Source of the DNA: a virus
Taxonomy: Duplodnaviria > Heunggongvirae > Uroviricota > Caudoviricetes
Virus record (IMG/VR): IMGVR_UViG_3300009154_000029
DNA length: 64,000 bases
Reading direction: 5' to 3' (one strand)
Part shown: positions 3,361 to 61,099 of the stretch, piece after piece
How the letters are laid out: every line of letters begins with the position of its first letter
Position numbering within the stretch: the first letter of the stretch is position 1
The notes under the pieces: model-generated
Databases searched by the model: none
What the model saw: the letters and a program-made list of their open reading frames with translations, nothing else
What the model was told of the DNA's origin: nothing
Made by a program: the position numbers and the translations under genes

Positions 3361-3364
3361 TAAC

Positions 3365-31857: not shown

Positions 31858-31913
31858 AACTTTATTGTTATTTTTTTATATATCTATTAACACCGTATTT
31901 TGATATATAAATC

Positions 31914-36588: not shown

Positions 36589-37731
36589 TTAAATCATTCC
36601 TTTTTTCAAAGCCCTACCCAAATGAGACATATCTTTTATTCCAGTCCTTTTAAGAACATCGTCCTTTATTTTAGGATAAGGATCTAGAAGATATAATTCT
36701 AGAGGATTTTCTTTAAAGTATTTGTCTAAAACATCATTTGTTAAAATTGTGGACATTAGCCTTTGAGCTTTTGTCCTAACCTCTGGTTTTTCAATTTTTG
36801 CCCATTTGGCACCTTCATAATAAGTTGTAAAGGATTCACCTGAAAGAACATGCAATTTAGATTCAAGATTCCATTCACCATCGGGTATGTAAAAAACCGG
36901 GGTTGAAAAAAATCCACCGATAAAATCAGCAACGCCCTTAAGGGATTTTAAATGATCATCCCAAGCATAAATACTACCTGCACGATAATTTCCTCCCACT
37001 TTTTTTGGTCCATTTTCTAGAGATTCTAGCATGTTTGAGTTGCAATAAAAATCTTGTCCAACTTCAATCGGAGATCCAGCTAGAGATTTAATTTCGCATT
37101 GAGAACAATTGAATAGACCAGAAACGTAGGTTGGTGCAAATGGCAAGGATGTTATTATTGAATTCCAAGAACAATTAAAGTCACCTTTAATTTTCCCGAA
37201 TCTCAGTGAATATAATGCTTCCAGTTTTTCATTCGTATCTATCTTTTGGATTAGATCAACATTTCCATTTACATCTATCCTTTCAGTGCTTGGATTCCAC
37301 TTCCAATTAGATGTTTTTATTGATGAAAACAATAAGGATAAAGCTTGATCACTGATAGGACCGTGAGTTTCTTTTCTAGTCCTCTTCTTTGCTTCCTTAG
37401 CGTATTTATCAATAAGATAATCAAGCAAATCCTTTAATGAGTAGGCATCTCCAGTAGCACCATATCTTCTAATAAATCCGCTATCTTTTGCATAGTCTCT
37501 AATGTACCCTGACTTCTGCAAAACTATTCCAGATGGATACAGATCTATTCTATTGTTAGATAACATAATGCTTTGATTTCTTGCCTGTCCAGCAGTTGTG
37601 GAATCTGTGAACCCCAGGTCTTGCAAAGATTTCCATTCCTCCTTATAGGAATCCTTCCAATTGGCAGGCCAGCCATCGCTTACAAGTCTCTCGTTTATGG
37701 GAAATTCTGAAAGATTAATAATTCTTCTCAT
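36589..37731 (-). CDS. LRR-like repeat protein of the conserved-C-tail family (paralog of 53234..54610)
   Basis: N-terminal ~110 aa alignable with 53234 gene; repeats ...SLAGSPIEVGQDFYCNSNMLESLENGPKKVGGNY; tail YFKENPLELYLLDPYPKIKDDVLKRTGIKDMSHLGRALKKGMI. Confidence 0.55.
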   Translation of the reverse strand: MRRIINLSEFPINERLVSDGWPANWKDSYKEEWKSLQDLGFTDSTTAGQARNQSIMLSNNRIDLYPSGIVLQKSGYIRDYAKDSGFIRRYGATGDAYSLKDLLDYLIDKYAKEAKKRTRKETHGPISDQALSLLFSSIKTSNWKWNPSTERIDVNGNVDLIQKIDTNEKLEALYSLRFGKIKGDFNCSWNSIITSLPFAPTYVSGLFNCSQCEIKSLAGSPIEVGQDFYCNSNMLESLENGPKKVGGNYRAGSIYAWDDHLKSLKGVADFIGGFFSTPVFYIPDGEWNLESKLHVLSGESFTTYYEGAKWAKIEKPEVRTKAQRLMSTILTNDVLDKYFKENPLELYLLDPYPKIKDDVLKRTGIKDMSHLGRALKKGMI

Positions 37732-38217: not shown

Positions 38218-38274
38218 TTTGCTAGTTATATATCGGAATACTAGAGATATATAAACAAATTAAAAAAGATATTT

Positions 38275-44115: not shown

Positions 44116-46404
44116 TTACTTGTATTTTCTGATTGATTCTTTTCTGTCTTTAAGGATTTTAAGAAGTCTTTTAGCCACATCCATCTCAGAAGCCTTTCTT
44201 AAAGCTAATGGACCTGGGTCAACGGAAGGTCTTTTTATTGGATCATCATCCGGATCGGTTGGTCTTTGAGGTTTAACTGGTTTTTCAGGATCAACATCAG
44301 GATCAACGTCTGGATCACTTGGTCTAGGCCTAGTGGCAGGCTCTGCATAAGTGAAAGCTTCGAAAGTCATAATTTTTCTAGATCCTATCGATTGTGATCC
44401 GTCCTCGAATAAATTAAAAATTCTTTGTACTCTTGAAGATTTGCTCTCGTTTACAGGTGTTCCGTTAATAACCAATTTGTTATTAACTATATCATATTCA
44501 AGGTGAATCTTATCTCCTACCTCATCATCTATAATTGCATTTGCGATAGGATCTTCGATATATTGTTGAATAGCACGTCTTAAAGGTCTAGCCCCCATTT
44601 CTTTATCATATCCATGCTTCATAATAATTTCCTTAACCGATCTTCCACAAGTTAATTCGATATTTCTTTCTTTTAACTTAGCTGCAACCTTATCTAATTC
44701 ACCATCTATGATTTTGTATAGATTGTCTTGCTCTAAAGGTTTAAATATAATTATTTCATCTATTCTATTAATAAACTCAGGTGGAAGTTTTTTCTTAAGA
44801 TCTGCCTTTACTGCATCTATTCTTTGAATCTCTTGTTTTGAAGCATCTGTAGAGAATCCTATCGTAGGTCTTCTCTCCTCCTCTGCCTTTGCTCCAATGT
44901 TAGAGGTCATGATTATAATGGTATTCTTGAAATCAACCTTTCTACCTTCGCCATCTGTCATATGTCCATCTTCAAAAACTTGAAGCCAAGATTGAAGAAC
45001 TTTAGCGTGTGCTTTTTCTAATTCGTCTAAAAGAACTATACAGTGTGGATTTCTTCTGATCTTTTCAGTGAACTGAGTTCCTTCGCCATATCCAACATAA
45101 CCTGGAGGTGAACCGAATAATCTAGAAACTGTATGAGGCTCACTGAATTCACTCATATCCAATCTAAACATTCTATTAGGATCCCCGAACATTTCCTTAG
45201 CTAAAGCTTTAACTAAGTGGGTTTTACCGACACCAGTAGGTCCAAGGAAAAGAAATACCCCCTCTGGACGGTTTGGATCTTTTAGACCTGCTTTAGTTCT
45301 TTTAATGATACGTGTTACAGCTTCAACTGCTTCGTCTTGTCCAATAACAGACATCTGCAATCTAGACTGTAGGCCTTTTAGAGATTGTTTTTGATCTCTA
45401 GAAACATTCTCGATAGGAATTCTAGTTTTCTTAGAAACAACCTCTTCGGCAAGTTCCTTAGTTATTGATATGGTTTCCTCTTTTGGTGAACCACCTTTAG
45501 CAGCCTTTAATTCCTCTTGGATCTCTTTAACCTTATCATGGGCTTCGAAAGACTCCTCAAATTTTTGTTCTTTTGCTAGACGATTAACCTTTTCCAAAGC
45601 AGATACAAGTTCTGTTTCTAATTCAATTACTCTAGGGTTTTTTGATCTAGACATACGAATTTTAGCTCCTGTTTCGTCCATTAAATCAATGGCCTTGTCA
45701 GGTAAAAATCTGTCGGTAATATATCTTTGTGAAAGTTTTATGAATGATTCTATAGCAGCATCTGTATATGAAACGTTATGAAACTCCTCGTATTTTTTCT
45801 TAATACCATTTAGTATTTCTAAACACTCAGAAAAACTAGGTTCATCCACATAGACCTTTTGAAATCTTCTTTCCATTGCTCCATCCTTCTCAATGCTTTC
45901 TCTGTATTCATTTAGTGTTGTTGCTCCAATTAAACTTAGTTTTCCTCTAGCTAGCGCTGGTTTAAGTGCGTCATAAACCTGTGGTTTTTTTAAGGTGTGC
46001 ATCTCATCCATAAATAGAACTAATCCCTCAGTCTCAACTTCTTGAATAAGTTGTCCTAAAGCACCCACTGCAAAAACTGCGTTAAGATCTATTGATATTA
46101 GTTTTTTGCCGCCTAAAAATTGAGGACAATCACCGCTTGCCATTACTATTGCTAGTTTTTCAACTGCGGCTGTTTTACCTACTCCTGGTTCACCAATTAA
46201 AACTGGATTATTCTTGGTTTTTCTACTTAAAACCCAAATAACTTGTTCAAGTTCTTTGTCTCTTCCAACGACAGGATCTATCTTTCCGTCCTTTGCCATC
46301 TGGGTTAAATCAACACCCAGTGCTTTATAGACCTTGTTACCCTCTGTGACCTGTTGATCTTCAATCTGGCTTTCCAGTACTTTTTTAGTGTGTAGTCTTT
46401 TCAT
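44116..46404 (-). CDS. ClpA/ClpC-like double-AAA+ unfoldase lacking N-domain, with IGF ClpP-docking loop and Pro/Asp-rich C-terminal tail
   Basis: two Walker A boxes GEPGVGKT and GPTGVGKT ~317 aa apart, sensor/arginine-finger blocks, PTIGFSTD loop, tail [28 protein letters not shown]. Confidence 0.8.
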
Positions 46405-46903: not shown

Positions 46904-47425
46904 ATGGAAAATAAAATTTTTGAAAATTTAGAAAAAAATAAAAAATTAAAAATCCAAAGTCTAGAGTGGAATCGTCTGGGGATTCAAACAAAATTAACAG
47001 AGATTAAAAAAATTATGGGGATCAGAAAATTCGATCTTCCATCAGAATCCCCGAATTGTTTATCAATTCTTATTTCCAAAACACCATTAATGTGTTTAGA
47101 TGTTGAAGGAACGCCAGGTTCGGTGGAGGGTTTTAGATCATTTTTAGCTGGGATAAATGTTGATTTAAACACCCTATTTTACGAGAAAACAGGAAACCAA
47201 GGTCTACACATATTTTTCAGAAAAAAGCCCGGTAGCACTAACATAAATAAGTATAATGTAAATAAATTTGGTATTCAATTTGATGTTCTTTATAGTGGAA
47301 GAGTTTTTACTACCCCTAGCTTCTTTATGGGCAGAACATACGAATTTGGAACAATAACACCATTCTCAATAAAAACAATTGAGGAGATCCAAGAAATGCC
47401 AGATTGGGTTTCTCTTTTACTATGA
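46904..47425 (+). CDS. PrimPol-like (bifunctional primase-polymerase small domain) protein, copy 1
   Basis: CLDVEGT (DxE), GNQGLHIFFRK, FGIQFDVLYSGRVFTTPS blocks match Prim-Pol motifs I-III. Confidence 0.45.
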   Translation: MENKIFENLEKNKKLKIQSLEWNRLGIQTKLTEIKKIMGIRKFDLPSESPNCLSILISKTPLMCLDVEGTPGSVEGFRSFLAGINVDLNTLFYEKTGNQGLHIFFRKKPGSTNINKYNVNKFGIQFDVLYSGRVFTTPSFFMGRTYEFGTITPFSIKTIEEIQEMPDWVSLLL

Positions 47426-47973
47426 ATCTGATAGAAAATTTTAAAATTTTAGGCTCCTATAATATAGATTCAATTCTTTCCAAAATTCAATGTTTGGATC
47501 AGGATTGGGATGAATACACATTCAGACAGGAGAGATATAAGGATCATAGTGAAACTAAAACAATTCCTCTTATATGGTCTGAGAAGTTTAATTCAATCGA
47601 AAAGAGAAAGTGGTATAATATCTTTGAGAATGAACTTGAAGAGCTAGAATTTATTTTTAATAGCTCACTCGAAGAAGGTGTAATAATAAGTGCTATTCTT
47701 ATTAATCTACCGAAGGGTAAATCTATAAAAAGGCATATTGATGCAAACCCAATAGGTGAAAGATTCAATCAATGTCACAGAATTCATATCCCTATAACAA
47801 CAAACGAAAACTGTATCTTTGAAATTAACGGAGAAGAGAAATCATTAAAGCCAGGAGAAATTTGGGAAATAAGTAATGTCTTTAAACCACATAGTGTAAG
47901 AAACGAAGGCGATTGCGACAGAATCCACCTACTAATTGACTGGATGCCATTAGAGATTTTTAAGAATCTCTGA
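47404..47973 (+). CDS. cupin / Asp-Asn beta-hydroxylase-like 2OG-Fe(II) oxygenase candidate
   Basis: HIDANP ... HRIHIP ... HSVRNEGDCDRIHLLIDW His/Asp spacing. Confidence 0.4.
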   Translation: MGFSFTMNLIENFKILGSYNIDSILSKIQCLDQDWDEYTFRQERYKDHSETKTIPLIWSEKFNSIEKRKWYNIFENELEELEFIFNSSLEEGVIISAILINLPKGKSIKRHIDANPIGERFNQCHRIHIPITTNENCIFEINGEEKSLKPGEIWEISNVFKPHSVRNEGDCDRIHLLIDWMPLEIFKNL

Positions 47974-48342
47974 TAAATTATTAGATGTTCCTGAATTTCC
48001 TTCCGAAGTGTAGCTAAAAACTCCATTTTTCTTAGTGATTACTAAATCACCAGATTCTGTTTTTAAGCAAACAGTGTTACAAAGATCACCTCTTCCAGTA
48101 AAAAAATCAGCAACAGATTCTGCAAGTCCTCTGCCATCTGGAGTTCCAAAATAGCTTGCGTCTTTACTTGTGCATTTAGAATCAACCTCACCCATACCAT
48201 TTGAAAGAGATTGTTTTCTGATTGAATTTATTTCATCTCTAGTGAACCAATTTATTGAGCCATTACCTTGATTAAATTCAAAACTTTGTGATTCTTCTAA
48301 AAGATCAGAAACAAACTCTTCAAATAATTTAAGACGCTTCAT
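47950..48342 (-). CDS. hypothetical protein, CTS-like N-terminus MKRLKLFEEFVSDLLEE
   Basis: ORF track; motif. Confidence 0.45.
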   Translation of the reverse strand: MKRLKLFEEFVSDLLEESQSFEFNQGNGSINWFTRDEINSIRKQSLSNGMGEVDSKCTSKDASYFGTPDGRGLAESVADFFTGRGDLCNTVCLKTESGDLVITKKNGVFSYTSEGNSGTSNNLSEILKNL

Positions 48343-48392
48343 AATTTACCTGCTGTTTTATCTGATATATATCAATGAAAAAACAATAAAAA

Positions 48393-49025
48393 ATGGTAAT
48401 AAAATTTTTAACATTTCTCCCCGATGGCCACTACGGTTATCCGGAACCAATATTAACCGACAACTTTACAATTCCAGATCGTGATGAACTTTTAGCCAGA
48501 TATGCAGAAGCAGATTGTAGCGCATATATAATGGGGGAAGACGATAACAGGGGTACAGAAGGGCCGTTTGATGACTTTCAAAACTATGAACTTTATAAGC
48601 ACGGTTTCATGATAATTGGAGAGAATCTGAATTATCTTAACCGCTATTTGTATGAGGCGATTAACAACTATCTGTCAGTGGCTTTAGGTGGAGGTGAAGG
48701 AGGTTATGAAGCTAACGGTAAAGATTTTTATGATCTATTCGATGCATATAGTCCTTTCAAAGGATTTATTGTACCGATAACTTTCGGCGATGAAGCTAAA
48801 GGAGACACATTAGACTCTGAACACGCATCGTTAGAAAACATAGATCCAAATTCCATTAAAATAGCTGTAGATGTCCTAGTTGAAAGATATAAAGACCATC
48901 CTTTAGAAATTTATCAGCTGGATGGTGTTCCTGAACTTAAGAAAATGGTTTTAGATAGATTGTCAGAGCTTGGAGTAAAAGACTTTGGAGCTTTGGGTAA
49001 GATTTTAGGGAAAGGTCTATTGTAA
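48393..49025 (+). CDS. acidic protein with the family C-terminal tail (no LRR repeats)
   Basis: ends LEIYQLDGVPELKKMVLDRLSELGVKDFGALGKILGKGLL. Confidence 0.5.
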   Translation: MVIKFLTFLPDGHYGYPEPILTDNFTIPDRDELLARYAEADCSAYIMGEDDNRGTEGPFDDFQNYELYKHGFMIIGENLNYLNRYLYEAINNYLSVALGGGEGGYEANGKDFYDLFDAYSPFKGFIVPITFGDEAKGDTLDSEHASLENIDPNSIKIAVDVLVERYKDHPLEIYQLDGVPELKKMVLDRLSELGVKDFGALGKILGKGLL

Positions 49026-49544
49026 AACTAAAAATCGTTCAATCAACCACTGGGGGATATGATCTATCTCATATAGAGAATTTATGGTAAACGGTGTTTT
49101 TTCTCCCCATTCATAAAATTTATCATCCAGATATGACGGAGCAGTAAAAGCTCTTCCCGTATAAAGAAAGTCAAAATCTATTCCATCAACTTTCGCTTTC
49201 TTGTATTTACTTAGCTCTATATTATTAGAATTCCTGAAATAAATGTGCAGACCAGAGTTAAGGCTCCTCTCATAGAACAAAGAGTCTAACGAAACCCCAA
49301 GTGAGCTAAGTATCCCCTTAAATTTCACAACAGAGTTTCTTGTGCCTTCCACATCTAGACAAACTAGATTGCTTACCCTTAGATTAATCGAAAGAAAATT
49401 AGAGTCTTTAATAATATCTGGAGATTCAGAACCGTTCACCAGATTTGAATGCCTGATGGTTTTCATAGATCCTCTCTGAGCCTCGCAAACTGAGACCTTT
49501 GTTAAAACACCTAAAGCATTCCATCTTTTAATATAATCTATCAT
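49017..49544 (-). CDS. PrimPol-like protein, copy 2 (inverted paralog of 46904..47425)
   Basis: CLDVEGT, NSGLHIYFRN, GIDFDFLYTGRAFTAPS. Confidence 0.45.
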   Translation of the reverse strand: MIDYIKRWNALGVLTKVSVCEAQRGSMKTIRHSNLVNGSESPDIIKDSNFLSINLRVSNLVCLDVEGTRNSVVKFKGILSSLGVSLDSLFYERSLNSGLHIYFRNSNNIELSKYKKAKVDGIDFDFLYTGRAFTAPSYLDDKFYEWGEKTPFTINSLYEIDHIPQWLIERFLVLQ

Positions 49545-49584
49545 GGCAAAGGAATATATATGTGAATCAAAATTACCGATGAAT

Positions 49585-50532
49585 ATGAAAAGAATTAAGA
49601 GGTTTGAGTTATTCTTAGAGAACGAAGAAAAGAAGACTGGCTATAAGCTTTTTTATTTTAAAACAGAAGCAAATGAAGACTATGGTTATCCAATCCTTTC
49701 TGAAGTCGACGAGGACGATTTATATAGGAGGAATGGTTCATGGAAATCCCCAAATAGCATTGATGAGCTTCATGACGAGTATGTTAACGCAAACAATGGA
49801 CCAATCCATGGCTCAGATGGGTGGGAAAGTCTCAATTATAGCATACAGAAGTATCAAGATGCAAAAGACCAAAATGACGAGGAAGAGATGGCAGAATGTC
49901 TTGAAAAAATTGAAGATTGTCTTTTAGATTTTGGACTTGACGATGCTGATGCAGAAAGAGTTGCGAATGAGCCAGATTATTATGATGAAATGACTACAAA
50001 GTATATTAATGACACATTTCAACAATGGAAAAATGCATATTACCCATTCGACTCATCTTGGAATTTTCTGTGCATAGATCTAAATGGTGGGGGAGAATAC
50101 TCTAATAGATGGGATGACAACTCTATAGATGGAAATCTTTGGACTACTATCGCTTCATTGATTGGCTCTGCCGTTATCCCATTAGCTTATTCGAATGATA
50201 GTGATTATTTTCATATATTAACTTCGGATAACGAATTCATAAAAACAAAATTCACAAAGTCAAATAGTCCAGAAAAGATTGCATCAGGATTTATAGCTGA
50301 TCCAGAATCTCATAAAATGGTAAGTGATATGATCTCAAAAATGGAAAATACAGGGAAAAAGAATTTTCTACCAAAAGCACCTTTAGATATACTTGATGCT
50401 TATTTTAAGGAGAATCCCTTAGATCTGTATATGATAGCTGACCATCCACAACTTAAGGATGAGGTTCTAAAAAGAACAGGCCTAAAGGACTTTTCAAGAT
50501 TAGGACAAACTATAGATAAAGGAATACTTTAA
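49585..50532 (+). CDS. acidic protein with family C-terminal tail; start at MKRIKRFELFLE
   Basis: internal ATG 49585 gives CTS-like N-terminus; tail YFKENPLDLYMIADHPQLKDEVLKRTGLKDFSRLGQTIDKGIL. Confidence 0.5.
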   Translation: MKRIKRFELFLENEEKKTGYKLFYFKTEANEDYGYPILSEVDEDDLYRRNGSWKSPNSIDELHDEYVNANNGPIHGSDGWESLNYSIQKYQDAKDQNDEEEMAECLEKIEDCLLDFGLDDADAERVANEPDYYDEMTTKYINDTFQQWKNAYYPFDSSWNFLCIDLNGGGEYSNRWDDNSIDGNLWTTIASLIGSAVIPLAYSNDSDYFHILTSDNEFIKTKFTKSNSPEKIASGFIADPESHKMVSDMISKMENTGKKNFLPKAPLDILDAYFKENPLDLYMIADHPQLKDEVLKRTGLKDFSRLGQTIDKGIL

Positions 50533-50589
50533 TCTACGTGGTCCTATTTAAATCAGGATATATAAAGTGCAAAATAATACTCGTAAAAT

Positions 50590-52257
50590 TTGAAGCTCCC
50601 TAAGAAATATCTCACATCTAATCCCAATATCATGAAAAGGGAAATAAAAAAACATGGCGATAAGAAGGATGATGATCCCTCTGCATACAAGGACTGGGAT
50701 GCTGACTATAAAAGTGGAAAGGCAGGAAAGGGTAAAGCAGTTCCAACCAAAAAGAGCAAGTACACAAAAAAGTACAAAGAGATGTTTGGAGAGAACGAGA
50801 GTGCGGGGAAAGACAGAATAATGGACTTCGAAACGTTCACAGTTGAAAACTTGGATGAAGCCTCTAAGATGAGTAAGGATAGTCCAGTTTATAAATCACT
50901 TAAAAAAAAGGCAAAAAAATCAGGATTCCCTTTATCGATTCTTAGAGAAGTGTGGAGCAGAGGGTATGCTGCTTGGAAGAATGGACACGTCCCAGGAACA
51001 ACACCTCAGCAGTGGGCAATGGCTAGAGTCAATTCTTTTATTGTTGGGGGCAGAACCACAGAAATGAGCGATAAGGCTCTTTATAAGAGAGCTAAGAAAT
51101 CAAAACGTGTTAATGAGAGTCAGGAACACCAAGAACTTACTGAGGAGCAAATTGCATGGCTTAATGGAAAAGTTAAAAAGGATTCAACATGGACATTGAA
51201 TCCACAAACAGGACTTGTTGATATTAACGGTAGCTTTAGTTGCGCTGTCTATTTTCCTACGCCAAAAAACAAGGCACTTCATGGAATTAGATTCGGAAAT
51301 GTGACTGGATCTTTTGACTGTAGCTCTTGTTACCTGCTATCCCTTGAAGGAACCCCCCGTACTGTTGGTGTTGATTTCGAGTGCTCGAATAACCCATTAG
51401 ATTCATTGGAAGGTGGACCATTAGAAGTTGGTAGAGATTTTAAATTTTATGCGACAAAGGTCACGTCTTTGGAAGGAGCACCAAAAATTGTTGGTCGTGA
51501 TTTCATATGCACAAGTAGTAAGTTGGTTACACTTAAAGGTGCACCCCAAACTATTATGGGAAAATTTGAGTGTAAAGGAAACGAGTTAGAGACTTTAGAA
51601 GGAGGACCTGAAATAGTAAATGGAACTTTTGATTGCGATGGGAATAAGCTTCAGTCGCTAAAAGGCGGACCTAGAGTGGTTGGAACGTATTACCAGTGTT
51701 GTAGTAACGATCTTCTCTCTTTAGAAGGAGCACCCGAAAAAGTTGGACATTTCTTCTGTAGAGGAAATAAAAATCTAACTTCTCTAGAAGGAGCTTCGAA
51801 TATGGAAACTGACGGTTATTTTAATTGTAGCGGAAATAATTTAACATCTTTAAAGGGATCGCCCAAAAAAGTTGGATGGTATTTTGATTGCACTAATAAT
51901 CCTCTTGAGACCCTCGAGGGGGTAACAATGGAGATAGGAGGTAAGTTTCGTTGTGATTCATTTGCTACTATTGACGGACAATGGAATGTTGGGGGTTGGC
52001 TGAATGTGTTAGAAAGAAAAACTGAAAGCACTAGAAACAACACAGAAGATCCATTACAAATAATAAATCTCGAGGATTCTAAAAAGCTAATTCTAACCAT
52101 ACTGTCTGACGATGTTGTTGATCAATATTTCAAAGAGAATCCATTTGAAATCGGTATTCTAGACAATTTACCTGAATTTAAGGAGAAGGTACTTAAGAGA
52201 ACTGGGCTTAGGGACCTATCTATTTTAGGAAAGGCACTTAGCAAAGGTATGCTTTAA
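50590..52257 (+). CDS. LRR-like repeat protein, conserved-C-tail family (555 aa, ~10 repeats)
   Basis: 22-aa repeats LxSLEGAPxxVGxxFxCSxNxL; tail YFKENPFEIGILDNLPEFKEKVLKRTGLRDLSILGKALSKGML. Confidence 0.6.
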   Translation: MKLPKKYLTSNPNIMKREIKKHGDKKDDDPSAYKDWDADYKSGKAGKGKAVPTKKSKYTKKYKEMFGENESAGKDRIMDFETFTVENLDEASKMSKDSPVYKSLKKKAKKSGFPLSILREVWSRGYAAWKNGHVPGTTPQQWAMARVNSFIVGGRTTEMSDKALYKRAKKSKRVNESQEHQELTEEQIAWLNGKVKKDSTWTLNPQTGLVDINGSFSCAVYFPTPKNKALHGIRFGNVTGSFDCSSCYLLSLEGTPRTVGVDFECSNNPLDSLEGGPLEVGRDFKFYATKVTSLEGAPKIVGRDFICTSSKLVTLKGAPQTIMGKFECKGNELETLEGGPEIVNGTFDCDGNKLQSLKGGPRVVGTYYQCCSNDLLSLEGAPEKVGHFFCRGNKNLTSLEGASNMETDGYFNCSGNNLTSLKGSPKKVGWYFDCTNNPLETLEGVTMEIGGKFRCDSFATIDGQWNVGGWLNVLERKTESTRNNTEDPLQIINLEDSKKLILTILSDDVVDQYFKENPFEIGILDNLPEFKEKVLKRTGLRDLSILGKALSKGML

Positions 52258-52265
52258 AGATAAGA

Positions 52266-53234
52266 ATGAGAAACTTAAAAACATATAAATTATTCGAGAA
52301 ATCACAAGAGATCACACCAGAGCAGAGGGAGTGGCTGGACACCTGCTCAACGGCAGGGAATAGACATTCAAAATGGTCAATAAATCCACTAGGAATGATT
52401 GATGTTGATCATGATTTTTATGCACATGGATCTAATGGAACAAGGTTTTCATCCAATCTAAGAAAGAATCTCACAGGATTTCTTGGATTAAAATTCGGAA
52501 AGGTTTGGGGGGGTTTCTTTGTTAATGACACTGCAATTACTACATTGGAGGGAAGTCCATCTGATGTTGGAGGATCCTTCCACTGTGAGCAGAACAGTTT
52601 GGAATCACTTGAAGGAGCTCCTGAAAGGGTGGGAAGAAATTTCGTTTGTAGTGGGAATACAACACTAAAATCTTTAAAAGGAGCACCTCGGGAGATTGGA
52701 TATGAACACACTTACGACGAGAATGATCTATATCCATCAGTATTTGATTGCTCACTTTGTGATTTAAAGAATCTAGAGGGAAGTCCAGAGTATATACCTG
52801 GTGATTTCAAATGCGAGGGAAATCCACTAGTATCTCTTAAGGGAGCACCTAGAGTTATAGAAAGAAACTTTTATACCAGAACCGGATTAGGTGAACTTAA
52901 ATCACTATACGGAGCTCCTGAAAAAGTAGGGGGTAGCTTTATATGTAATGACTTCACTTTGTATAATGGAACATGGGGAACCTCAGAATCATACACAAAG
53001 CTCTTTTTAGGAGTTGAAGACGATGACTGTAAAATATACGCTAGTTCAGAGAGAATGAAATTGTTGATGACACCTTATGTTACTGACGATTTAGTCGACT
53101 CATTCTTTAAGGAGAATCCACTAGAGATTGGTCTTCTAGACGGTTATCCAGAAATTAAAGCTGAAGTTCTCAAAAGAACAGGACTAAGAGACATGTCATC
53201 ATTAGGACAAGCTCTAAGAAAAAAAATGATATAA
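52266..53234 (+). CDS. LRR-like repeat protein, conserved-C-tail family (MRNLKTYKLFEK)
   Basis: repeats plus tail FFKENPLEIGLLDGYPEIKAEVLKRTGLRDMSSLGQALRKKMI. Confidence 0.6.
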   Translation: MRNLKTYKLFEKSQEITPEQREWLDTCSTAGNRHSKWSINPLGMIDVDHDFYAHGSNGTRFSSNLRKNLTGFLGLKFGKVWGGFFVNDTAITTLEGSPSDVGGSFHCEQNSLESLEGAPERVGRNFVCSGNTTLKSLKGAPREIGYEHTYDENDLYPSVFDCSLCDLKNLEGSPEYIPGDFKCEGNPLVSLKGAPRVIERNFYTRTGLGELKSLYGAPEKVGGSFICNDFTLYNGTWGTSESYTKLFLGVEDDDCKIYASSERMKLLMTPYVTDDLVDSFFKENPLEIGLLDGYPEIKAEVLKRTGLRDMSSLGQALRKKMI

Positions 53235-54610
53235 TGGGAAAACACATTTTAAGCGCAGCAGAATTCTTTCTGAATGAGGGGACAATCAACGATCCATCAG
53301 ATTGGCCAGATAACTGGAAAGACATGCCTGAATGGACACAACTCCAGGAGCTTGGATTTACTGACGCCACCACGCCGCAAATGGCCAAGAACGGTAGCAT
53401 TCTTCTCATGAACTTTGCCATTCCACACTATCCAGGAGGTATAACACTTCAACAATCAGGGTACATTAGAAATAAGTTGGCATCTTCAGGATTCATTAAA
53501 AATTATCGTGATAGCTTTACACTTAAGCAAATGTTTGACTACCTTATAGAGAAATTCACTAAGCTCTCAAAAAAAGGAATAGAAAGAAACCCAGAGCATG
53601 GTGATCTTCCAGATCCAACAGTTGCATTCTTAAATAAGGTGGTTAATGGATCTTGGAGTTTTAACCAGGAAACTCAAAGAATTGACGTTGAAGGTAATGT
53701 TAACATGTCCATGATCAAATCTATACCCGAGGGGATCAGATTCGGAAACGTTTTGGTTCATTTCGTTTGTAATAATATGGGACTTACCAATTTAGATATT
53801 GCTCCGATATATGTTGGTGGATATTTTGACTGCTCGAGTAATAAACTCACCTCGCTAGAGGGAGGACCTGAAAGAGTGGACGGAAATTATGACTGCTCAC
53901 TCAATAAGCTCACAACATTAAGGGGTGCTCCAGAATATTGTGCACACTCATTTGTCTGCAGTTCTAATAAATTAGAAACGCTAGAGGGATGTCCGAAAGA
54001 AGTGGGTAGGAGATTTGATTGTTCAAAAAATCCTCTGAAATCCCTTATTGGCTCTCCTGAGATGAATCCTGAAAGCCAATTTTTTGCAGATCGAACCCTC
54101 ATTAACAATCTAAGTGGAATGCCTGAAGTTGGTGAGGTGACAATTGAGGCATGTAAAAATCTCAAATCTTTAAGGGATTTACCCCAAAGTGTTTATTCCA
54201 TATATCAGGGGGGTATGTCAATCTTTATTAATAAAGGAGGGAATAGATCAGGTGGCAATTTTTCAAGATCATATATTCTTGAAGCAATAGCACAGCTTAT
54301 TTCTTATAGGAATGAAGCTATCACCAGTGATCGTTATTCTAATACTCAGATCCCAGATATAGAAAGAGGCGGATACACCATACACACTAATATATACAAT
54401 TGGAATTCTACACCAAAGGAAAGGGAAAGGGGATTTACTCTTTTTATGACACTTCTAGACAATGACTTCTTAGATCAATACTTCAAAGAAAATCCTATGG
54501 ATATCAATATATTAAATGCATTGCCTGATGTTAAAGCCGGGGTATTACAAAGAACTGGTATAAAAGACTACTCCAAACTAGCAGCAGCTCTAAGAAGCGG
54601 TATGGTTTAA
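53234..54610 (+). CDS. LRR-like repeat protein, conserved-C-tail family (paralog of 36589..37731)
   Basis: shared N-domain, repeats CSSNKLTSLEGGPERVDGNYD etc., tail YFKENPMDINILNALPDVKAGVLQRTGIKDYSKLAAALRSGMV. Confidence 0.6.
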   Translation: MGKHILSAAEFFLNEGTINDPSDWPDNWKDMPEWTQLQELGFTDATTPQMAKNGSILLMNFAIPHYPGGITLQQSGYIRNKLASSGFIKNYRDSFTLKQMFDYLIEKFTKLSKKGIERNPEHGDLPDPTVAFLNKVVNGSWSFNQETQRIDVEGNVNMSMIKSIPEGIRFGNVLVHFVCNNMGLTNLDIAPIYVGGYFDCSSNKLTSLEGGPERVDGNYDCSLNKLTTLRGAPEYCAHSFVCSSNKLETLEGCPKEVGRRFDCSKNPLKSLIGSPEMNPESQFFADRTLINNLSGMPEVGEVTIEACKNLKSLRDLPQSVYSIYQGGMSIFINKGGNRSGGNFSRSYILEAIAQLISYRNEAITSDRYSNTQIPDIERGGYTIHTNIYNWNSTPKERERGFTLFMTLLDNDFLDQYFKENPMDINILNALPDVKAGVLQRTGIKDYSKLAAALRSGMV

Positions 54611-54643
54611 TAGTATTAAAAATTTAAATAGATATATAATTAT

Positions 54644-55222
54644 ATGAAGCATATCCATGACTACCATATATTCGAGAGCACTACCAGCAAGAATCTTGTC
54701 TCCCCCTCACTCTCACCGATTACAACCTACTTCGAGACCGCACAGGGATCCAAGTATCTTCTCTCACAGAAGGGAGAGACCAAGAGGTGGAAAAGCTCAC
54801 ACGCCAACACAGGAGGGGAAGATCAAGGGCTAAAGTCCTGGTATCCCAACTCCATGTTTGTACCTGAGGATAGTCTAGATGCTATGATGGCTTACGAGCA
54901 CTTATTAGATAAAGGATACAGAATATCACTCTCCAAGACCCAGAACGGCAAGCAGGTCTGGATCATTCTTAAAGATGGTGCGTGGACACCAGCTCTCTAC
55001 TCCGACGCATTCCCAACATATAGCAGACTGAACCCAGATAAAGCATCTAAGCCACTAGCTTTCACTAGCTACTCAACGCCATCTCTAGGCATGATGGCTG
55101 TGGAGTACAAACAGGAATCTAATGGACTGATCAGAAGCTTCCATCCTGGTTCTCCAGTCTCCAAGGTGCTACCTATAGATCAGGCTGATCCTAAGGATCT
55201 GTTCTACTTTGGCATTAAATAA
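54644..55222 (+). CDS. hypothetical protein in GC-richer island (MKHIHDYHIFE)
   Basis: ORF track; composition shift. Confidence 0.45.
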   Translation: MKHIHDYHIFESTTSKNLVSPSLSPITTYFETAQGSKYLLSQKGETKRWKSSHANTGGEDQGLKSWYPNSMFVPEDSLDAMMAYEHLLDKGYRISLSKTQNGKQVWIILKDGAWTPALYSDAFPTYSRLNPDKASKPLAFTSYSTPSLGMMAVEYKQESNGLIRSFHPGSPVSKVLPIDQADPKDLFYFGIK

Positions 55223-55296: not shown

Positions 55297-55755
55297 ATGA
55301 TTAAATCTAAATCAAAGGGGGAAGATCTCGATAATAACTCCTATTTATGGGAACTCCTTAGGGAGGAGTATCTAGAGGAGCTCTACTCAAGGGTAAGCTC
55401 ATCCGATCTCTTCCTGCCCAAAAGATTTCTCTGGGAGCACGTTATCTGTTTAGTTTCTTATCGCGATCTTCCATCTAGTGTGAACGTGGACAAAGCCATC
55501 TACGAGAAGAAGGTGGAGCACTATCGACAGAAGGTCACAGGTCAGCCTCAGCACTCATTTAATGTATTTATGGCCGAAATAGCCGATAGAATGAATGGAT
55601 ATGACGGGTACGTTCTCGCCGAATGGAATATTGGAATGGAATCAGTGGAGGGATATATGAAGAAATTTGGGGTGGATAGGGACACGGCTTTGAAGATGAA
55701 GAGTCTATACGAGGACTCACCCCTTATAGAGATGGAATGGAAGCAAGTCAAATAG
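55297..55755 (+). CDS. hypothetical protein, paralog of 60185..60610
   Basis: shared EGYM..GVDR..ALK.KSLY....E.EW..V C-terminal blocks. Confidence 0.45.
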   Translation: MIKSKSKGEDLDNNSYLWELLREEYLEELYSRVSSSDLFLPKRFLWEHVICLVSYRDLPSSVNVDKAIYEKKVEHYRQKVTGQPQHSFNVFMAEIADRMNGYDGYVLAEWNIGMESVEGYMKKFGVDRDTALKMKSLYEDSPLIEMEWKQVK

Positions 55756-55863
55756 AACAATCTGCTAAATGATCTGCCCGACTTAAAGGCGGGGGTTCTG
55801 AAGAGAACTGGTCTTAAAGACATGAGCGCTCTAGTCAAAGGTCTAAAAGGGGGAATGTTTTAA
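55756..55863 (+). pseudogene. orphan copy of the family C-terminal tail (NNLLNDLPDLKAGVLKRTGLKDMSALVKGLKGGMF), in frame directly after the TAG stop of 55297..55755
   Basis: manual translation of codons from 55756; no start codon; 35 codons then TAA at 55861-55863. Confidence 0.5.
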
Positions 55864-55874
55864 TTAACCTCTTA

Positions 55875-58160
55875 TCAATTTTTTACAAATCTGTAAATTT
55901 TTGAACCGCTTGTTAGACTTAACAAAAGGATATATGTTCCTGACGATATCACAGAGGTATTTACAACCACTATATTACTCCCCTTAGATAGACGTATTTT
56001 ATTTCTGTATACTATTCTTCCCATCGCATCTATAACATTCACATTTGAGAATTGAGCGGATTCTGAAAAAAAATTTATTCTGTATACATCTTTAACAGGA
56101 TTAGGGGATCCCTCATTAGAGGAAGATCTTACTAGAACTGTAGCAGTTGAAATCTTTGTTAATAAAGCTGATCCATAGGCAGGGATTGTAATGGTTCCAA
56201 TATAGTTATTACCATATACATCTCTGTATGTACCATCCAATGTAGTGACAACAGGGGCATTAGTAGTATTATAAAAAGGAATAAATGTTGTTGTAGGAAT
56301 AGCTACACTTGCGGCATCCCCAGCTATAAATGTTTTCCAGGCAGTCAGTTTCAAACTTGCGGGATCTACAAATGTACCACCAGAGGTAAGATGGTAATAG
56401 TAGTCAAATGGATTGGTTACGTCATCTCTGTAGTAGTTGCTATCAAATACAGCAATCAATCTCATATCATTCTGGATAGTGATTGTTGTAGGAGTATTTA
56501 ACGCACCGTTCCAGTAAAAGAAGTTTTTTTGAGAGGTGGTTGATGGATATATGACATTTTTCTTAACCGTATTGTTTCTCACCTGAGATGTGTCGCTAGG
56601 AAGCCTGTTCATAGAAATACAATCTGTACTGTTATACACCATGTTGGTACGAATATTAACTCTCTTACTATTATTAAGAAATATTCCCTCTCCATTTGTA
56701 GAAGAAACTGAATTACTTGTAATGTTTACATCACTAGCTCCATCTATATAAATACCCCTAGCATCTCCGGTAGTTGTGCTAGTACCAGCTGCTGCTCCCA
56801 CTGTAGTGATAATGATATTATTAGAAATTGTTCTGTTTGTCTTGCCTAAACCTGTGTAAGTGTAAATAGCTCCACCGTCATTCTTCTCACTATTAGTATT
56901 AGTGATATAGTTTTTGTCTACAAGCACATTACCACCCTTCCAATCAATACCATTGAAGCCAATACTATCTATTCTGTTATTAGTAATTGTTACCCCAAGC
57001 CCATCTACAAACACAGCAGCACCTTGTCCATCATCACCTGATCTACCCATTCCGGGGATAAGTCCACACTTAGAAATGGTATTAAACCTAACAGTAACAG
57101 CCCTATCTGCTCTCCCCTGAAGACGAACCCCAGTGTTAAGGCAGTTCTTTATTGTGCTGGACTCAACCAATGCATTCGCCACATACCACATCTTTACAGC
57201 ATCAAAGTTGTACTCAAATTCGCAATTAGATACGGTGATGTTGCTAGCATCCTTTGCTATTAAAGCAGCATAACCAGCTCCGGTAAATCTAAGGTAACTA
57301 AACTTAATATTACTCCTTGCTGTTCTCCCACCGTATCCACCGCAGTGAACCAATGTATCTTGTGCACTCACTTTAATGGTATAACTAGCTGGATTGAGAT
57401 TGCCAAAGTACACTTGTAATGTTTTCCCTGAATTGTTCCAATACCACTCCCCAAAACTGTCAAGAGTCCTGATGTCATCCTGAAAAAAGAACCCGTAATT
57501 AGCTTTCCCGGGATAGGTGTTAGTAACACCTGACCAAATATCACCACTAGCTGGAGCTGGGTTTCTATAGCTCACCTTTGTACCAACTTGGCTTTTAACT
57601 CTTCCTGTATCTAAAATCCATCTCTCTTTCCTTACAATAATCTGAGCTCCTGTCCAGTTAGTTGTGCTTAACTGACTGCTAGTCAAACTGGTATCTCCAG
57701 CTGAAAGTGTACCCACTGACTGATAGGTTAGATATCCCTTATTTGTTGCTGTGTAATTAGGGAATCTACCCATTCCTGTCAGAACACCATTAACCGTTAC
57801 TATCGAAGCTCTACTCGGATCACTGGTTATAGGGTTACTACTGTAGATGCCCACCCCTGAAAGAGTCCATCCTGTAACAGTTACAAATCCGGTAATCTCA
57901 GGAAGGCTTCCTGTACCATAAGCATTAAACACTAGGTTGTCTCTATTGGGAATAAGCTTTCCCTGAAACACATCCCCTCGTTTAAAAGAAATGGTGTCAC
58001 CAGAAGCAAAGGTGGCTGTGTTCACCTTATTTAGTGACTGCCACGGAGCGCCCAATGTGCCAGCATTAGCATCATTTCCCGTGCTTGATGATACGTAATA
58101 ATTCTTTGCCTGTGCTCCTAGGGACGACAAAATGATAAGGTAAAAAATCAGGGCTCTCAT
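55875..58160 (-). CDS. secreted right-handed beta-helix protein with T9SS C-terminal sorting domain
   Basis: signal peptide MRALIFYLIILSSLGAQA, parallel beta-helix-like repeats, C-terminal ~80 aa with Por-secretion CTD pattern. Confidence 0.6.
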   Translation of the reverse strand: MRALIFYLIILSSLGAQAKNYYVSSSTGNDANAGTLGAPWQSLNKVNTATFASGDTISFKRGDVFQGKLIPNRDNLVFNAYGTGSLPEITGFVTVTGWTLSGVGIYSSNPITSDPSRASIVTVNGVLTGMGRFPNYTATNKGYLTYQSVGTLSAGDTSLTSSQLSTTNWTGAQIIVRKERWILDTGRVKSQVGTKVSYRNPAPASGDIWSGVTNTYPGKANYGFFFQDDIRTLDSFGEWYWNNSGKTLQVYFGNLNPASYTIKVSAQDTLVHCGGYGGRTARSNIKFSYLRFTGAGYAALIAKDASNITVSNCEFEYNFDAVKMWYVANALVESSTIKNCLNTGVRLQGRADRAVTVRFNTISKCGLIPGMGRSGDDGQGAAVFVDGLGVTITNNRIDSIGFNGIDWKGGNVLVDKNYITNTNSEKNDGGAIYTYTGLGKTNRTISNNIIITTVGAAAGTSTTTGDARGIYIDGASDVNITSNSVSSTNGEGIFLNNSKRVNIRTNMVYNSTDCISMNRLPSDTSQVRNNTVKKNVIYPSTTSQKNFFYWNGALNTPTTITIQNDMRLIAVFDSNYYRDDVTNPFDYYYHLTSGGTFVDPASLKLTAWKTFIAGDAASVAIPTTTFIPFYNTTNAPVVTTLDGTYRDVYGNNYIGTITIPAYGSALLTKISTATVLVRSSSNEGSPNPVKDVYRINFFSESAQFSNVNVIDAMGRIVYRNKIRLSKGSNIVVVNTSVISSGTYILLLSLTSGSKIYRFVKN

Positions 58161-58859: not shown

Positions 58860-60086
58860 ATGAGAAGAATTTTAAATTTTTATGATTTCACATCAGATTC
58901 ATCAATGAATGAATCTGACAAACCGTTGGAGGGGAAACCGAAAGAAGGAAAGCCTTCATTCGAAATCCCCAAGATTAATCAGAAGATGCCTAGCGATTAT
59001 TTGGGCAAAGGAGGGGGATTGGAGGGAGGAAAATACCCCGGAGGTAGAAAAACATATGCCAGACTAAGGACGAAAGCTGTTACTGATCTCCTAAAATTAA
59101 AAAAAGATATGGAGGAAGAGGGTTTTATGGAAGACTGTGAAGAATCATTAAAGGGGGCTAAGGAGGAGTTAAAAAAATTGTTTGCTAGCCCGATTACTGC
59201 CAGAAAATTTAGAGACAACTACGAGAAATCAAAGAATACAGCAATTGCTAATAGCCAAAAATCAATTTTTAAAAAGTATTTAAATGCGATCGAAAATCTT
59301 GAAATTGCCTACTATACAAATAGCGGTCTTTGGCAGGAAGGCATATCCCCATTAGTCAGAAAGAAAATTGAAAAAATATATCCCACAGGATCTAAATTCT
59401 ATAAGGAATACCCCGATGCTATTGCTTTTGTTCTTCCTGAAGATCCGGAGCTTAATAGAATTATATTCGTGAATTGTGTTAAGGGATTAGAAAAAAGCAT
59501 GTTTGACGAAATGAAGTTCGTTATGATCCATGAGATTCAACATTTACTGTTTAAGATCTGTCCAATAAATCCAGAGGCCCAAATTGGAAAGACTTTTATT
59601 GGCCCAGGAGAACCAAAATCAAGTCCGTTAGCATCCTTGTTTGGAGGAGGGGGTCTTTTTAAAACTGCTAAGGATTTATATTTTAAATTATCGGGTAAAA
59701 AATCAGAGGCGGAGATGGAATCAGCTTTAGCTCGAATAAAGAGAATATCAAAAGAAACTAGTAGCGACACCGAGGCAAAGAACATATATTTTTATTGGAC
59801 TAAACTATGCATGGAAAAGGGTAATGGCCAATACATAGATGAGATAACTGAAAATGCATCTCGAATTATTGCTATGAGATCAGTTCTAGGGGTTTCCCCT
59901 GGGAAGGACATAAGCAAAAAAATGATCCTGCCCTATATCCTTAGAAAGGAAAGCGATACAAACATATCCTGGCTATTGCTGGCTTGGGCTAAAAACGGAT
60001 TTAAAGATTTGGATCAATTTTTAAATGGAATAAACGCACTGGCTAAATCGGACCAAGCCTCTCAATTTGGCGGAGATTACGCGTAA
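58860..60086 (+). CDS. HExxH zinc metalloprotease-like protein, CTS-like N-terminus MRRILNFYDFTSD
   Basis: HEIQH motif (MIHEIQHLLF) around residue 224. Confidence 0.45.
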   Translation: MRRILNFYDFTSDSSMNESDKPLEGKPKEGKPSFEIPKINQKMPSDYLGKGGGLEGGKYPGGRKTYARLRTKAVTDLLKLKKDMEEEGFMEDCEESLKGAKEELKKLFASPITARKFRDNYEKSKNTAIANSQKSIFKKYLNAIENLEIAYYTNSGLWQEGISPLVRKKIEKIYPTGSKFYKEYPDAIAFVLPEDPELNRIIFVNCVKGLEKSMFDEMKFVMIHEIQHLLFKICPINPEAQIGKTFIGPGEPKSSPLASLFGGGGLFKTAKDLYFKLSGKKSEAEMESALARIKRISKETSSDTEAKNIYFYWTKLCMEKGNGQYIDEITENASRIIAMRSVLGVSPGKDISKKMILPYILRKESDTNISWLLLAWAKNGFKDLDQFLNGINALAKSDQASQFGGDYA

Positions 60087-60184
60087 ATGAAAGATAAACT
60101 TACCATCTCATACAGCCTGGACTCACCTCCAGGCTTTTTTGTGGTCTAAGCCCCCGGGCAGGTTTTCGAAAAATCCCCGAGTTT

Positions 60185-60610
60185 ATGGGTTATATTTGGA
60201 TTATGAACCAAGACGAGATCAAAGAGCTAGAAGCCCAAACACTAAAGCAATATCTGAAGGAGCTAGAGACCCTGGTGTCCATGCCCGAACTCTACAAATC
60301 AAACTACCCCTTATGGGACAAGATGGTGCATAACAGACTCAGGCATCCCACCGATGAGAAGATAGACTGGGCTCTGATCTACCAGTACGAGGCGGTAATG
60401 GACACACCCCAGCACATGCTCGATCTGTTTGTCTCAGTGGAGAGGGATGATTGGGGGGTTTCATCGTTTCCCATAGGGGAGATACGCTGGGACATGGACA
60501 CCGAAGGGTATATGAGGGTCTATGGAGTGGACCGACCCATGGCTCTCAAGATCAAGAGTCTATACCGAAAGCAGGTGTTCATAGAGCTCGAGTGGGTCAA
60601 AGTCCACTAA
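60185..60610 (+). CDS. hypothetical protein in GC-rich island, paralog of 55297..55755
   Basis: alignment of C-terminal blocks; GC-rich codon usage. Confidence 0.45.
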   Translation: MGYIWIMNQDEIKELEAQTLKQYLKELETLVSMPELYKSNYPLWDKMVHNRLRHPTDEKIDWALIYQYEAVMDTPQHMLDLFVSVERDDWGVSSFPIGEIRWDMDTEGYMRVYGVDRPMALKIKSLYRKQVFIELEWVKVH

Positions 60611-60654
60611 ACCCCCAGGAGACCCGCCCACCACAAGCCAATGATATATAAGAC

Positions 60655-61041
60655 ATGAAACACATAGACACATACGAGATGCTAGAGGCTAAAGGCCCAT
60701 GCTGGACAGGCTACAAGCAGATTGGCACCAAGATCAAGAAAGGCAGAAAGGTGCCGAGATGCGTGCCGATCAAGGAGGGAGAGATCACACCACCACCAGG
60801 CTGGGAGATGCAAGACTCATCCCTCTATAAGAGATACACGTTCAAGGACTTCAAAGTTGCCATGGCATTTATGAACGAGGTCGCAGAGGTGTGCAACCAA
60901 ATGAATCACCATCCCAAGTGGACCAACGTTTATAAGACTGTCCAGTGCTGGCTTAGAACCCATGACGCAGGAGATGTGCCTACAGAGAAGGATCACGAGC
61001 TTGCTCTAGCTATGGACTCTATAGCCTCCAGGCTCAGCTAG
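60655..61041 (+). CDS. pterin-4a-carbinolamine dehydratase (PCD/DCoH)-like protein with N-terminal extension
   Basis: EVCNQMNHHPKWTNVYKTV...RTHDAG matches the [E]xxxHHPxxxxxY...HD PCD signature. Confidence 0.6.
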   Translation: MKHIDTYEMLEAKGPCWTGYKQIGTKIKKGRKVPRCVPIKEGEITPPPGWEMQDSSLYKRYTFKDFKVAMAFMNEVAEVCNQMNHHPKWTNVYKTVQCWLRTHDAGDVPTEKDHELALAMDSIASRLS

Positions 61042-61067
61042 AAGCCCACACAAAACTCCAATCATAC

Positions 61068-61093
61068 AGTCCAGGTTATTCTGGACTTTTTTA
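61068..61093 (+). terminator. rho-independent terminator
   Basis: AGTCCAG-GTTATT-CTGGACT hairpin followed by TTTTTT. Confidence 0.55.
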
Positions 61094-61099
61094 TGTCCC

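Follow-up and report, generated by a model that had tools for sequence, protein, structure and literature searches.

A multigene family of an uncultured phage joins a shared C-terminal module to leucine-rich-repeat and other payloads

The 64,000-nucleotide stretch of DNA analyzed here (hereafter the window) derives from IMG/VR virus record IMGVR_UViG_3300009154_000029, a member of the Caudoviricetes, and carries seven copies of a C-terminal protein module of ~50-60 amino acids (aa), six on intact genes and one on an interrupted gene (Table 1). An initial annotation, made from the letters of the sequence alone, had listed six such open reading frames (ORFs), including one on the minus strand at 36589-37731, and we find all six where it placed them. 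A profile hidden Markov model (HMM) built from 87 examples of the module, which we call the tail, detects exactly seven copies in the window with E-values from 3e-15 to 3e-31, the seventh spanning positions 55756-55860. Alignment confirms that all six intact members end in the C-terminal motif that had been noted, and 11 of the 12 alignment columns that are invariant among them lie in the tail.

The payloads that precede the tail are of several kinds. Specifically, these are a leucine-rich repeat (LRR) array, an SGYIR-type N-terminal domain followed by LRRs, a DUF5824 domain followed by LRRs, and two payloads that have no LRRs. As the initial annotation had recognized, the proteins m36589 and m53234 share their N-terminal domain, which we find to be 49% identical over 117 aa. 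The Pfam domain DUF5824 is present only in m50590, where it spans aa 96-159 and passes its gathering score (57.1 bits versus a cut-off of 25). Searches of Pfam, PHROGs and NCBIfam with the family members and most of the neighboring genes yield almost no matches, and a Foldseek comparison of the full-length model to the Protein Data Bank (PDB) yields no significant match. We consider the anatomy and the family as described here to be very likely correct.

Every payload type in the window has full-length, tail-bearing orthologues in related phages at ~30% identity. For example, m48393 corresponds over its full length to the metagenome protein P0254 (31% identity) and m49585 to P0179 and P0238 (~30% across the full length), whereas m53234 is identical to P0001. 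These full-length matches at such low identity indicate that the paralogues are old. Relatives also encode proteins in which an N-terminal domain is joined to the tail with no LRRs between them, as well as double-tail fusions. Comparison to a strain variant at 97.7% nucleotide identity yields ratios of nonsynonymous to synonymous substitution (dN/dS) of 0.15 for m50590, 0.37 for m48393 and 0.59 for m49585, the value for m49585 being based on few changes. In this small sample of two strains there is no sign of ongoing positive selection, and the members are functional genes under purifying selection. The earlier proposal of a modular family with variable payloads is supported, but recent cassette exchange is not, given orthologues at ~30% identity, and neither is rapid diversification, given dN/dS values between 0.15 and 0.59.

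The whole array, including the TAG triplet at 55753-55755, is carried by five independently assembled metagenome contigs at 99.97-100% identity. The region, with its repeats, is therefore not an assembly artefact, a source that this agreement rules out. The TAG triplet is of particular relevance to the seventh tail copy, which had been described as a tail-only remnant at 55756..55863 lacking a start codon. The HMM supports the presence of a tail there. However, it is not a solitary remnant, because it is in frame with the ORF at 55297-55755 across the TAG, and the read-through product (m55297) aligns across the stop with the intact tail-bearing proteins P0156, P0186 and P0164 (25-29% identity over 135-155 aa). 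Recoding of TAG at 55753 can be ruled out, since TAG terminates 23 of the 96 ORFs in the window, coding density under translation table 11 is 91%, and no tRNA genes lie within the 64 kb. With the shared frame, the alignment across the TAG and an ordinary stop function for this codon, the seventh copy is a member interrupted by a nonsense codon. The arrays of related phages also include short ORFs (42-93 aa) that encode a tail and nothing else (L006 3295-3465; P0121-P0130) and that resemble the truncated copy at 55756, such that decay or the expression of free tails seems to be recurring.

The initial annotation had held the tail to be invariant and the last ~120 nucleotides of each gene to be identical, and had proposed that these ends could act as recombination anchors. 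The tails are conserved rather than invariant, with 39-68% identity between pairs at the amino acid level and 57-70% at the nucleotide level, and identity at third codon positions is only 32-65%. The longest nucleotide word common to tail pairs is 7-14 nucleotides, and a repeat finder reports only 60-85% identity over no more than 57 nucleotides. With third positions near saturation, the tail is conserved at the level of protein, and a comparison of the tail-encoding segments gives no signal of gene conversion. An anchor for cassette exchange would be in keeping with the modular architecture and with the domain-shuffled and fused variants of relatives. However, each payload type retains a tail of its own among its orthologues (~30% overall identity), and for present-day sequences the proposal is refuted by these data; we judge it highly improbable as an account of why the tail is shared.

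Tail homologues are not confined to this genome. A profile search of 1.84 billion representative proteins recovers 165 tail clusters (at 50% identity) with E-values of 1e-3 or better, among which 110 reach 1e-10, and all of the tail proteins come from metagenomes, the only sources from which the lineage is known. LRR arrays form the payload of 81 of 143 tail-bearing proteins, and the other 62 have a different payload. For 131 of 168 proteins, the C-terminus is precisely where the match stops. The final ten residues conform to [LI]-[GA]-[RK]-x-[LMI]-[RK]-x-G-[LIM]-[ILF], and the final 20 aa carry a net charge of +3.4. An AlphaFold2 model of the m36589 tail alone has five short helices and a predicted local distance difference test score (pLDDT) of 89. 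Furthermore, the tail core is internal in a subfamily (P0132, P0135 and P0063) and in the double-tail fusions P0016 and P0131, which shows that it is a domain and not merely a terminal peptide.

No Pfam or PHROGs model and no solved structure matches the tail, and tblastn searches of 50,697 GenBank phage records with the tail consensus return nothing. A profile search of PDB sequences gives only ribosomal protein eS19 (E=0.015), and a DNA-binding helix-hairpin-helix fold, also considered, gained no support. The tail is thus a previously undescribed helical domain that marks a clade of uncultured phages.

Four of the members carry tandem repeats, as had been reported, although the period is 21 aa rather than the 22 initially given; the example units listed in that annotation also comprise 21 letters. 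Among repeat spacings below 40 aa, 172 are 21 aa long, compared to 30 at 20 and 20 at 22. There are ~10 copies in m50590, six each in m52266 and m53234, four in m36589 and none in the other three members. A logo of 172 repeats gives the consensus V-G-G-x-F-x-C-x-x-N-x-L-T-S-L-E-G-A-P-x-x, in which F5 (80%), C7 (75%), N10 (79%), L12 (84%) and L15 (98%) correspond to L4, L6, N9, L11 and L14 of the LRR consensus. The residues that follow L14 are E (52%), G (97%), A/G/S, P (98%), two variable positions and then V.

Pfam LRR models match below their gathering scores (LRR_4 at 12.7 bits versus 27, LRRNT at 11.6 versus 25.8), and a precomputed PF12799 match is present on some homologues. Both hallmarks of the LRR superfamily are present, namely tandem units of 20-30 aa with an LxxLxLxxNxL segment and a curved solenoid fold. 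In addition, a phmmer search of PDB sequences with the m50590 repeats gives a sole match, to Internalin J (InlJ, 3bz5; E=1.3e-14), and the family profile matches InlJ with E=7.7e-8. The repeats are true LRRs that form a solenoid, as the initial annotation had supposed, and they constitute a variant class like that of Internalin J, with a cysteine ladder and their own N- and C-terminal caps. The kinship to BspA-like proteins that it had also suggested is not borne out: no member matches LRR_5 (PF13306) at E<=1, and this model is seen solely in unrelated neighbor genes of the relative L016.

The least conserved repeat positions are 4, 6, 8, 9, 11, 20 and 21, and those from 4 to 11 are the x positions of the LRR strand. 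In solved LRR proteins, the x positions of the F-x-C-x-x-N-x core form the strand on the concave face. The variability of these residues leads us to predict that the solenoid presents a protein- or ligand-binding surface.

Table 1. Coordinates of family members, repeat arrays, tails and promoter-like motifs in the window.
Feature	Coordinates	Strand	Description
m36589	36589..37731	-	380 aa: leader MRRIINLSEFPINE, SGYIR-type N-domain, ~4 LRRs, C-cap, tail
m48393	48393..49025	+	210 aa: non-LRR payload, divergent tail with 3-aa insertion; tail E=8.6e-18
m49585	49585..50532	+	315 aa: leader MKRIKRFELFLE, non-LRR payload, tail; nominal ORF start 49543
m50590	50590..52257	+	555 aa from TTG: Lys-rich N-terminus, DUF5824, LRR N-cap, 10 LRRs, C-cap, tail
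m52266	52266..53234	+	322 aa: leader MRNLKTYKLFE (L-x-E at residue 11), LRR N-cap, ~6 LRRs, tail
m53234	53234..54610	+	458 aa: leader MGKHILSAAEFFLNE (L-x-E at residue 15), SGYIR N-domain, ~6 LRRs, insert, tail
m55297 (seventh member)	55297..55863	+	152-aa ORF, TAG 55753-55755, 35-aa tail end in frame
LRR array of m36589	36892..37158	-	
LRR array of m50590	51301..51933	+	10 x 21 aa
LRR array of m52266	52503..52925	+	
LRR array of m53234	53750..54190	+	
Tail of m36589	36592..36771	-	tail HMM E=2.7e-31
Tail of m48393	48834..49022	+	tail HMM
Tail of m49585	50350..50529	+	tail HMM
Tail of m50590	52075..52254	+	tail HMM
Tail of m52266	53052..53231	+	tail HMM
Tail of m53234	54428..54607	+	tail HMM
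Palindromic promoter-like GATATATATC	48364..48373	.	between divergent 47950-48342(-) and 48393(+)
Promoter-like AATATATA	49553..49560	+	24 nucleotides upstream of ATG 49585
Promoter-like GATATATA	50557..50564	+	upstream of m50590

Almost all tail-bearing proteins of full length also share a feature at their opposite end that the initial annotation had not reported. This leader comprises 11-15 aa with the consensus M-K-(H/R/N)-I-K-x-F-x-(L/Q)-F-E-(S/A), has an amphipathic pattern and mostly ends in L/I-x-E. A loose form of the pattern, M-K-x-I-K-x-F-x-x-F-E, is found in 98 of 140 tail-bearing proteins compared to 5.6 in shuffled controls. Among these 98 leader proteins, 85 have [L/I]-x-E with the glutamate at residues 8-17, mostly at 11-14, versus 14.3 +/- 3.5 in shuffles, with S as the following residue in 42 proteins and A in 18. 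In the structural model, disorder extends over the N-terminal 18 residues.

The leader is not restricted to the tail family. It is present on 27 of the 96 ORFs in the window (28%), many of which lack a tail, such as those at 26789-27583(-), 38275-38946, 39527-40000, 47950-48342(-), 54644-55222 and 58860-60086, and on 32-55% of ORFs in related loci. By comparison, 62 kb of T4 at equal GC content has only 3 examples among 101 ORFs, an enrichment of about tenfold. Leader-bearing proteins of the lineage include two SLT lytic transglycosylases, one VanY carboxypeptidase and one PG_binding_1 protein, all of which have no signal peptide, along with proteins carrying HD, PRTase, RNase_T, Pterin_4a and NAGPA-like domains. 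The leader is missing from the endolysin (16064-16933) and from core enzymes, among them ThyA, thioredoxin and an IMPDH-like protein. Additional peptidoglycan hydrolases that have no secretion signal are typical virion or ejection proteins, as exemplified by T7 gp16.

Several observations concern individual leader-bearing genes. At the N-terminus of m50590 (50590-50860), a Lys-rich extension of 75 aa begins with TTG, and a leader-like DRIMDFETFTVEN follows at residues 75-87; an alternative ATG lies at 50632, and the protein may have another start or carry an N-terminal fusion. Adjoining m36589, the gene at 36111-36587 (-) has a leader-bearing product of 158 aa that contains an HExxH motif (LAHELIHADQ) and may be a small metallopeptidase, although it matches no family. 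The ORFs at 18266-18907 (-) and 18937-19497 (-) are tandem paralogues whose first 16 residues are alike save one (MNKQIIRNFDEF[I/L]NEE) and constitute a small leader-bearing family. A leader is also carried by the Pterin_4a dehydratase gene product at 60655-61041, which lies in a GC-rich stretch (0.51 at 60000-62000 versus ~0.35 elsewhere) that covers the ORFs from 60185 to 61592 and may be a recent acquisition.

Leader genes are associated with a promoter-like motif, [G/A]ATATATA (Fisher p=2e-5). The exact octamer GATATATA occurs 26 times in the window compared to 4.1 expected, nearly always just upstream of ORF starts (for example at 31902-31909, 38227-38253, 48364-48373, 54631-54638 and 60643-60650), and the motif is abundant in related contigs as well. 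The distance from the end of the motif to the ATG clusters at 4-5 nucleotides or at ~20-24 nucleotides, and the shorter spacing suggests that some of the mRNAs may be leaderless. The nominal ORF with its start at 49543 contains a promoter-like AATATATA, which supports the start of m49585 that had been assigned at 49585. No such motif precedes 52266 or 53234, and thus the genes for m50590, m52266 and m53234 probably form one operon. A scan of the array for sigma-70 promoters and terminators gave results below shuffled expectation.

The family is a lineage-specific multigene family of an uncultured, low-GC and probably very large phage. The population is also represented by JGI contigs of 147 and 88 kb, and its sources are lakes (JGI 3300010885, 3300027741 and 3300027747). 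A degenerate DNA pattern for VLKRTGIKD recovers one IMG/VR contig of 434.5 kb, IMGVR_UViG_3300032236_001850, and the related contigs, which also include examples of 154, 181, 290 and 345 kb, the last being the ENA contig ERZ1426845, have a GC content equal to that of the window. Related loci hold 1-8 tail copies each, per 5-21 kb, and one of them has eight leader-LRR-tail genes arranged head-to-tail within 5 kb.

Other genes in the window deserve mention. Three consecutive small genes downstream of thyA (2409-3760) have precomputed Pfam matches to YAcAr, Tad6 and cREC_REC; they are also found in loci L007 and L008 and are a possible anti-defence cluster. Closer to the array, the ORFs at 46904-47425 (+) and 49017-49544 (-) are inverted paralogues of ~175 aa that share LDVEGT...LFYE...GLHI(F/Y)FR, and the second has a weak Prim-Pol match (22.7 bits) slightly below the cut-off. 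This inverted pair flanks a hydroxylase gene, one leader ORF and m48393.

What might a family with this architecture do? The leader is reminiscent of the capsid-targeting sequence (CTS) of phage T4, a propeptide of 10-19 aa at the N-terminus of otherwise unrelated internal proteins, in which residues 4 and 7 are important for targeting, and residues 8 and 10 are important for processing (PMC9026906). The T4 protease gp21 cuts after L/I-X-E, and a Glu-Ala bond was the site that was determined first (PMC9026906). The reading we prefer, with a probability of roughly 40%, is that the family members are modular host-interaction proteins loaded into the virion. Specifically, the leader would act as does the T4 sequence to bring each protein into the prohead, where a Glu-specific prohead protease would remove it. 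The tail would dock the different payloads on one common partner, such as a scaffold, an inner body or another virion component. LRR payloads would then enter the host together with the DNA and engage targets there at an early stage of infection. The wall-active leader proteins that have no signal peptide, and the position of a family gene in the relative L020 directly behind a gene that resembles those of tail and virion structural proteins, also speak for this reading. The initial annotation had proposed a cargo or host-interaction role for the family; this remains plausible, and the resemblance of the leader to a CTS provides independent support for it.

Several findings weigh against loading into the virion. 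The leader pattern does not match MKTYQEFIAE, the sequence at the N-termini of both IPII and IPIII of T4, and its spacing differs, such that the resemblance is one of pattern and not of homology. Neither a gene for a Glu-specific prohead protease nor one for a scaffold core was found in the window or its +/-10-kb flanks. The leader is very frequent, with 28-50% of the ORFs in these regions carrying it, and its abundance would imply a packaged proteome of unprecedented size. Some leader proteins resemble ordinary cytoplasmic enzymes (PRTase, HD, RNase_T and Pterin_4a). Moreover, the proteins are net acidic, with a charge of about -2.5 per 100 aa, versus the basic internal proteins of T4, and the leader is weak or displaced in three members (m48393, m50590 and m55297).

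The presence of leaders on enzyme-like proteins would be less puzzling if the family comprised intracellular effectors that never enter the virion. In this alternative, the LRR would capture host proteins in the cytoplasm for host takeover or anti-defence, and the leader and tail would be handling signals that promote timed turnover, assembly of a cytoplasmic complex, or recognition by an unfoldase. A candidate for the last is encoded 2 kb upstream of the array at 44116-46404 (-), where a 762-aa, double-ring AAA+ ATPase of the Clp family scores well on ClpB, ClpA and ClpV models but falls below all equivalog cut-offs; its tblastn matches looked like host-derived Clp genes in phage-labelled records. 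Furthermore, the family genes lie among accessory genes with no recognizable structural module around them, and the C-terminus is kept to the last residue as a basic-basic-G-hydrophobic-hydrophobic sequence. This conserved end recalls the C-terminal ClpX recognition signals of the MuA type, and we treat the likeness as a lead only. However, a tail core that can be internal or fused and that is modeled with high confidence behaves as a folded domain rather than as a terminal degron. Handling signals of this kind also leave unexplained the conserved L/I-x-E followed by S or A, as well as the use of the leader on peptidoglycan-active proteins that have no signal peptide but not on the endolysin. 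We view a purely intracellular role as somewhat unlikely.

Alternatively, the tail might anchor interchangeable binding modules to the outside of the particle, on fibers, collar or baseplate, so that each virion displays several adhesins. LRR solenoids are classical adhesin and recognition modules, and internalins are the closest relatives of the phage repeats in both structure and sequence. In phage Goslar, ten paralogues have one DUF7941 module fused to carbohydrate-binding, glycosidase or LRR domains and are proposed to form a 'fibre cloud' for host recognition (bioRxiv 10.64898/2026.04.21.720040). In the relative L020, a family gene directly follows a gene that matches 'tail protein' and 'virion structural protein' PHROGs. 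The array of the window is itself abutted by a gene at 55875-58160 (-) whose 761-aa product has an N-terminus resembling a signal peptide, a right-handed beta-helix (Beta_helix/NosD) and a Por_Secre_tail sorting domain of the type IX secretion system (T9SS). Because of its signal peptide and sorting domain, however, this neighbor should be secreted rather than bound to the virion, and it may be a depolymerase exported via the T9SS of the host. The presence of such a sorting domain on a phage-encoded protein points to a host in Bacteroidota, which is probably where the host of this phage belongs.

Other features also fit poorly with an external location. A short, cleavable-looking N-terminal leader is unexpected on fiber proteins, and the family members have no trimerization or fiber-type domain. 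The tail is unlike known virion anchors, and the small non-LRR payloads have no adhesin features. Furthermore, no member matches DUF7941 in Pfam at E<=1, and the parallel with Goslar is thus one of analogy only. An external decoration set strikes us as quite unlikely.

Loading into the virion by means of the leader and the tail, the reading we favor, can be extended to a broader proposal, namely that huge phages employ two-part addressing. A cleavable leader on about one third of genes, combined with a C-terminal docking domain on a subset of these, would load diverse effectors for co-injection. We regard this generalization as unlikely. If true, two-part addressing would define a packaged 'first-strike proteome' of LRR binders, peptidoglycan hydrolases, nucleases and nucleotide enzymes far beyond that of T4 or phiKZ-like phages. 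In any event, the tail and leader offer a sequence handle for predicting which proteins of these phages are transported as a group, possibly within the capsid. A leader that truly is a packaging signal would constitute an independent second case of the capsid-targeting principle of T4, employed on a much greater scale, and would provide a ready-made label with which to load foreign proteins into the heads of large phages. In that case, the LRR paralogues would be candidates for injected proteins that bind host factors, for example defence systems, and would offer a testable way into the biology of huge phages that are beyond present culture.

LRR multigene families and sets of paralogues with a shared module are already known kinds in large phages. 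By contrast, neither the tail domain nor its combination with a CTS-like leader appears to have been described, and the same applies to the scale on which the leader is used. The repeats themselves are most similar to those of InlJ and of the IRREKO class, whose consensus is LxxLxCxxNxLxxLDLxx(N/L/x)xx (PMC2946307). They share the 21-residue period, the L-x-C-x-x-N-x-L-x-x-L segment, a cysteine at core position 6 in 75% of repeats and the solenoid. However, the variable segment of the phage repeat is S-L-E-G-A-P-x-x-V-G-G, with invariant Gly and Pro, rather than L-D-L-x-x-(N/L)-x-x. The nested periodicity of 10/11 residues that is a feature of IRREKO repeats was not found in those of the phage, which have no second L-x-L unit. 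The phage-encoded members also differ from InlJ in having no signal peptide and no LPXTG or GW anchor, and by sequence they are cytoplasmic. Among phages, the same repeat type (C-S-N-N-N-L-T-S-L-E-G-A-P-Q-S-V-Q-G-N-F) is present in CDS0008 of Vibrio phage VB_VaC_SRILMA, in the 735-kb metagenomic phage LR756501 and in phrog_7816, although those proteins have neither the tail module nor a canonical leader.

The DUF7941 family of Goslar (Chimalliviridae) is similar in that one conserved module is placed on many paralogues of a large phage with varied payloads, including LRRs, and is proposed to keep host-interaction domains attached to a shared scaffold. The Goslar module differs in being N-terminal, larger and predicted to polymerize head-to-tail, and it belongs to another phage lineage. 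T4 provides the parallel at the opposite end of the protein. The leader shows no sequence homology to the T4 CTS, is 1-5 residues longer and is used on ~30% of ORFs rather than on a handful, and its bearers in the tail family are acidic and have an extra conserved C-terminal domain that is missing from T4 internal proteins. Nevertheless, as with the CTS that T4's internal proteins and Alt carry, a short peptide at the N-terminus is common to fast-evolving accessory proteins that are otherwise unrelated and whose genes cluster in variable regions. In both systems, this peptide begins with M-K, position 4 is hydrophobic and position 7 aromatic, and its end is L/I-x-E with a small residue after it.

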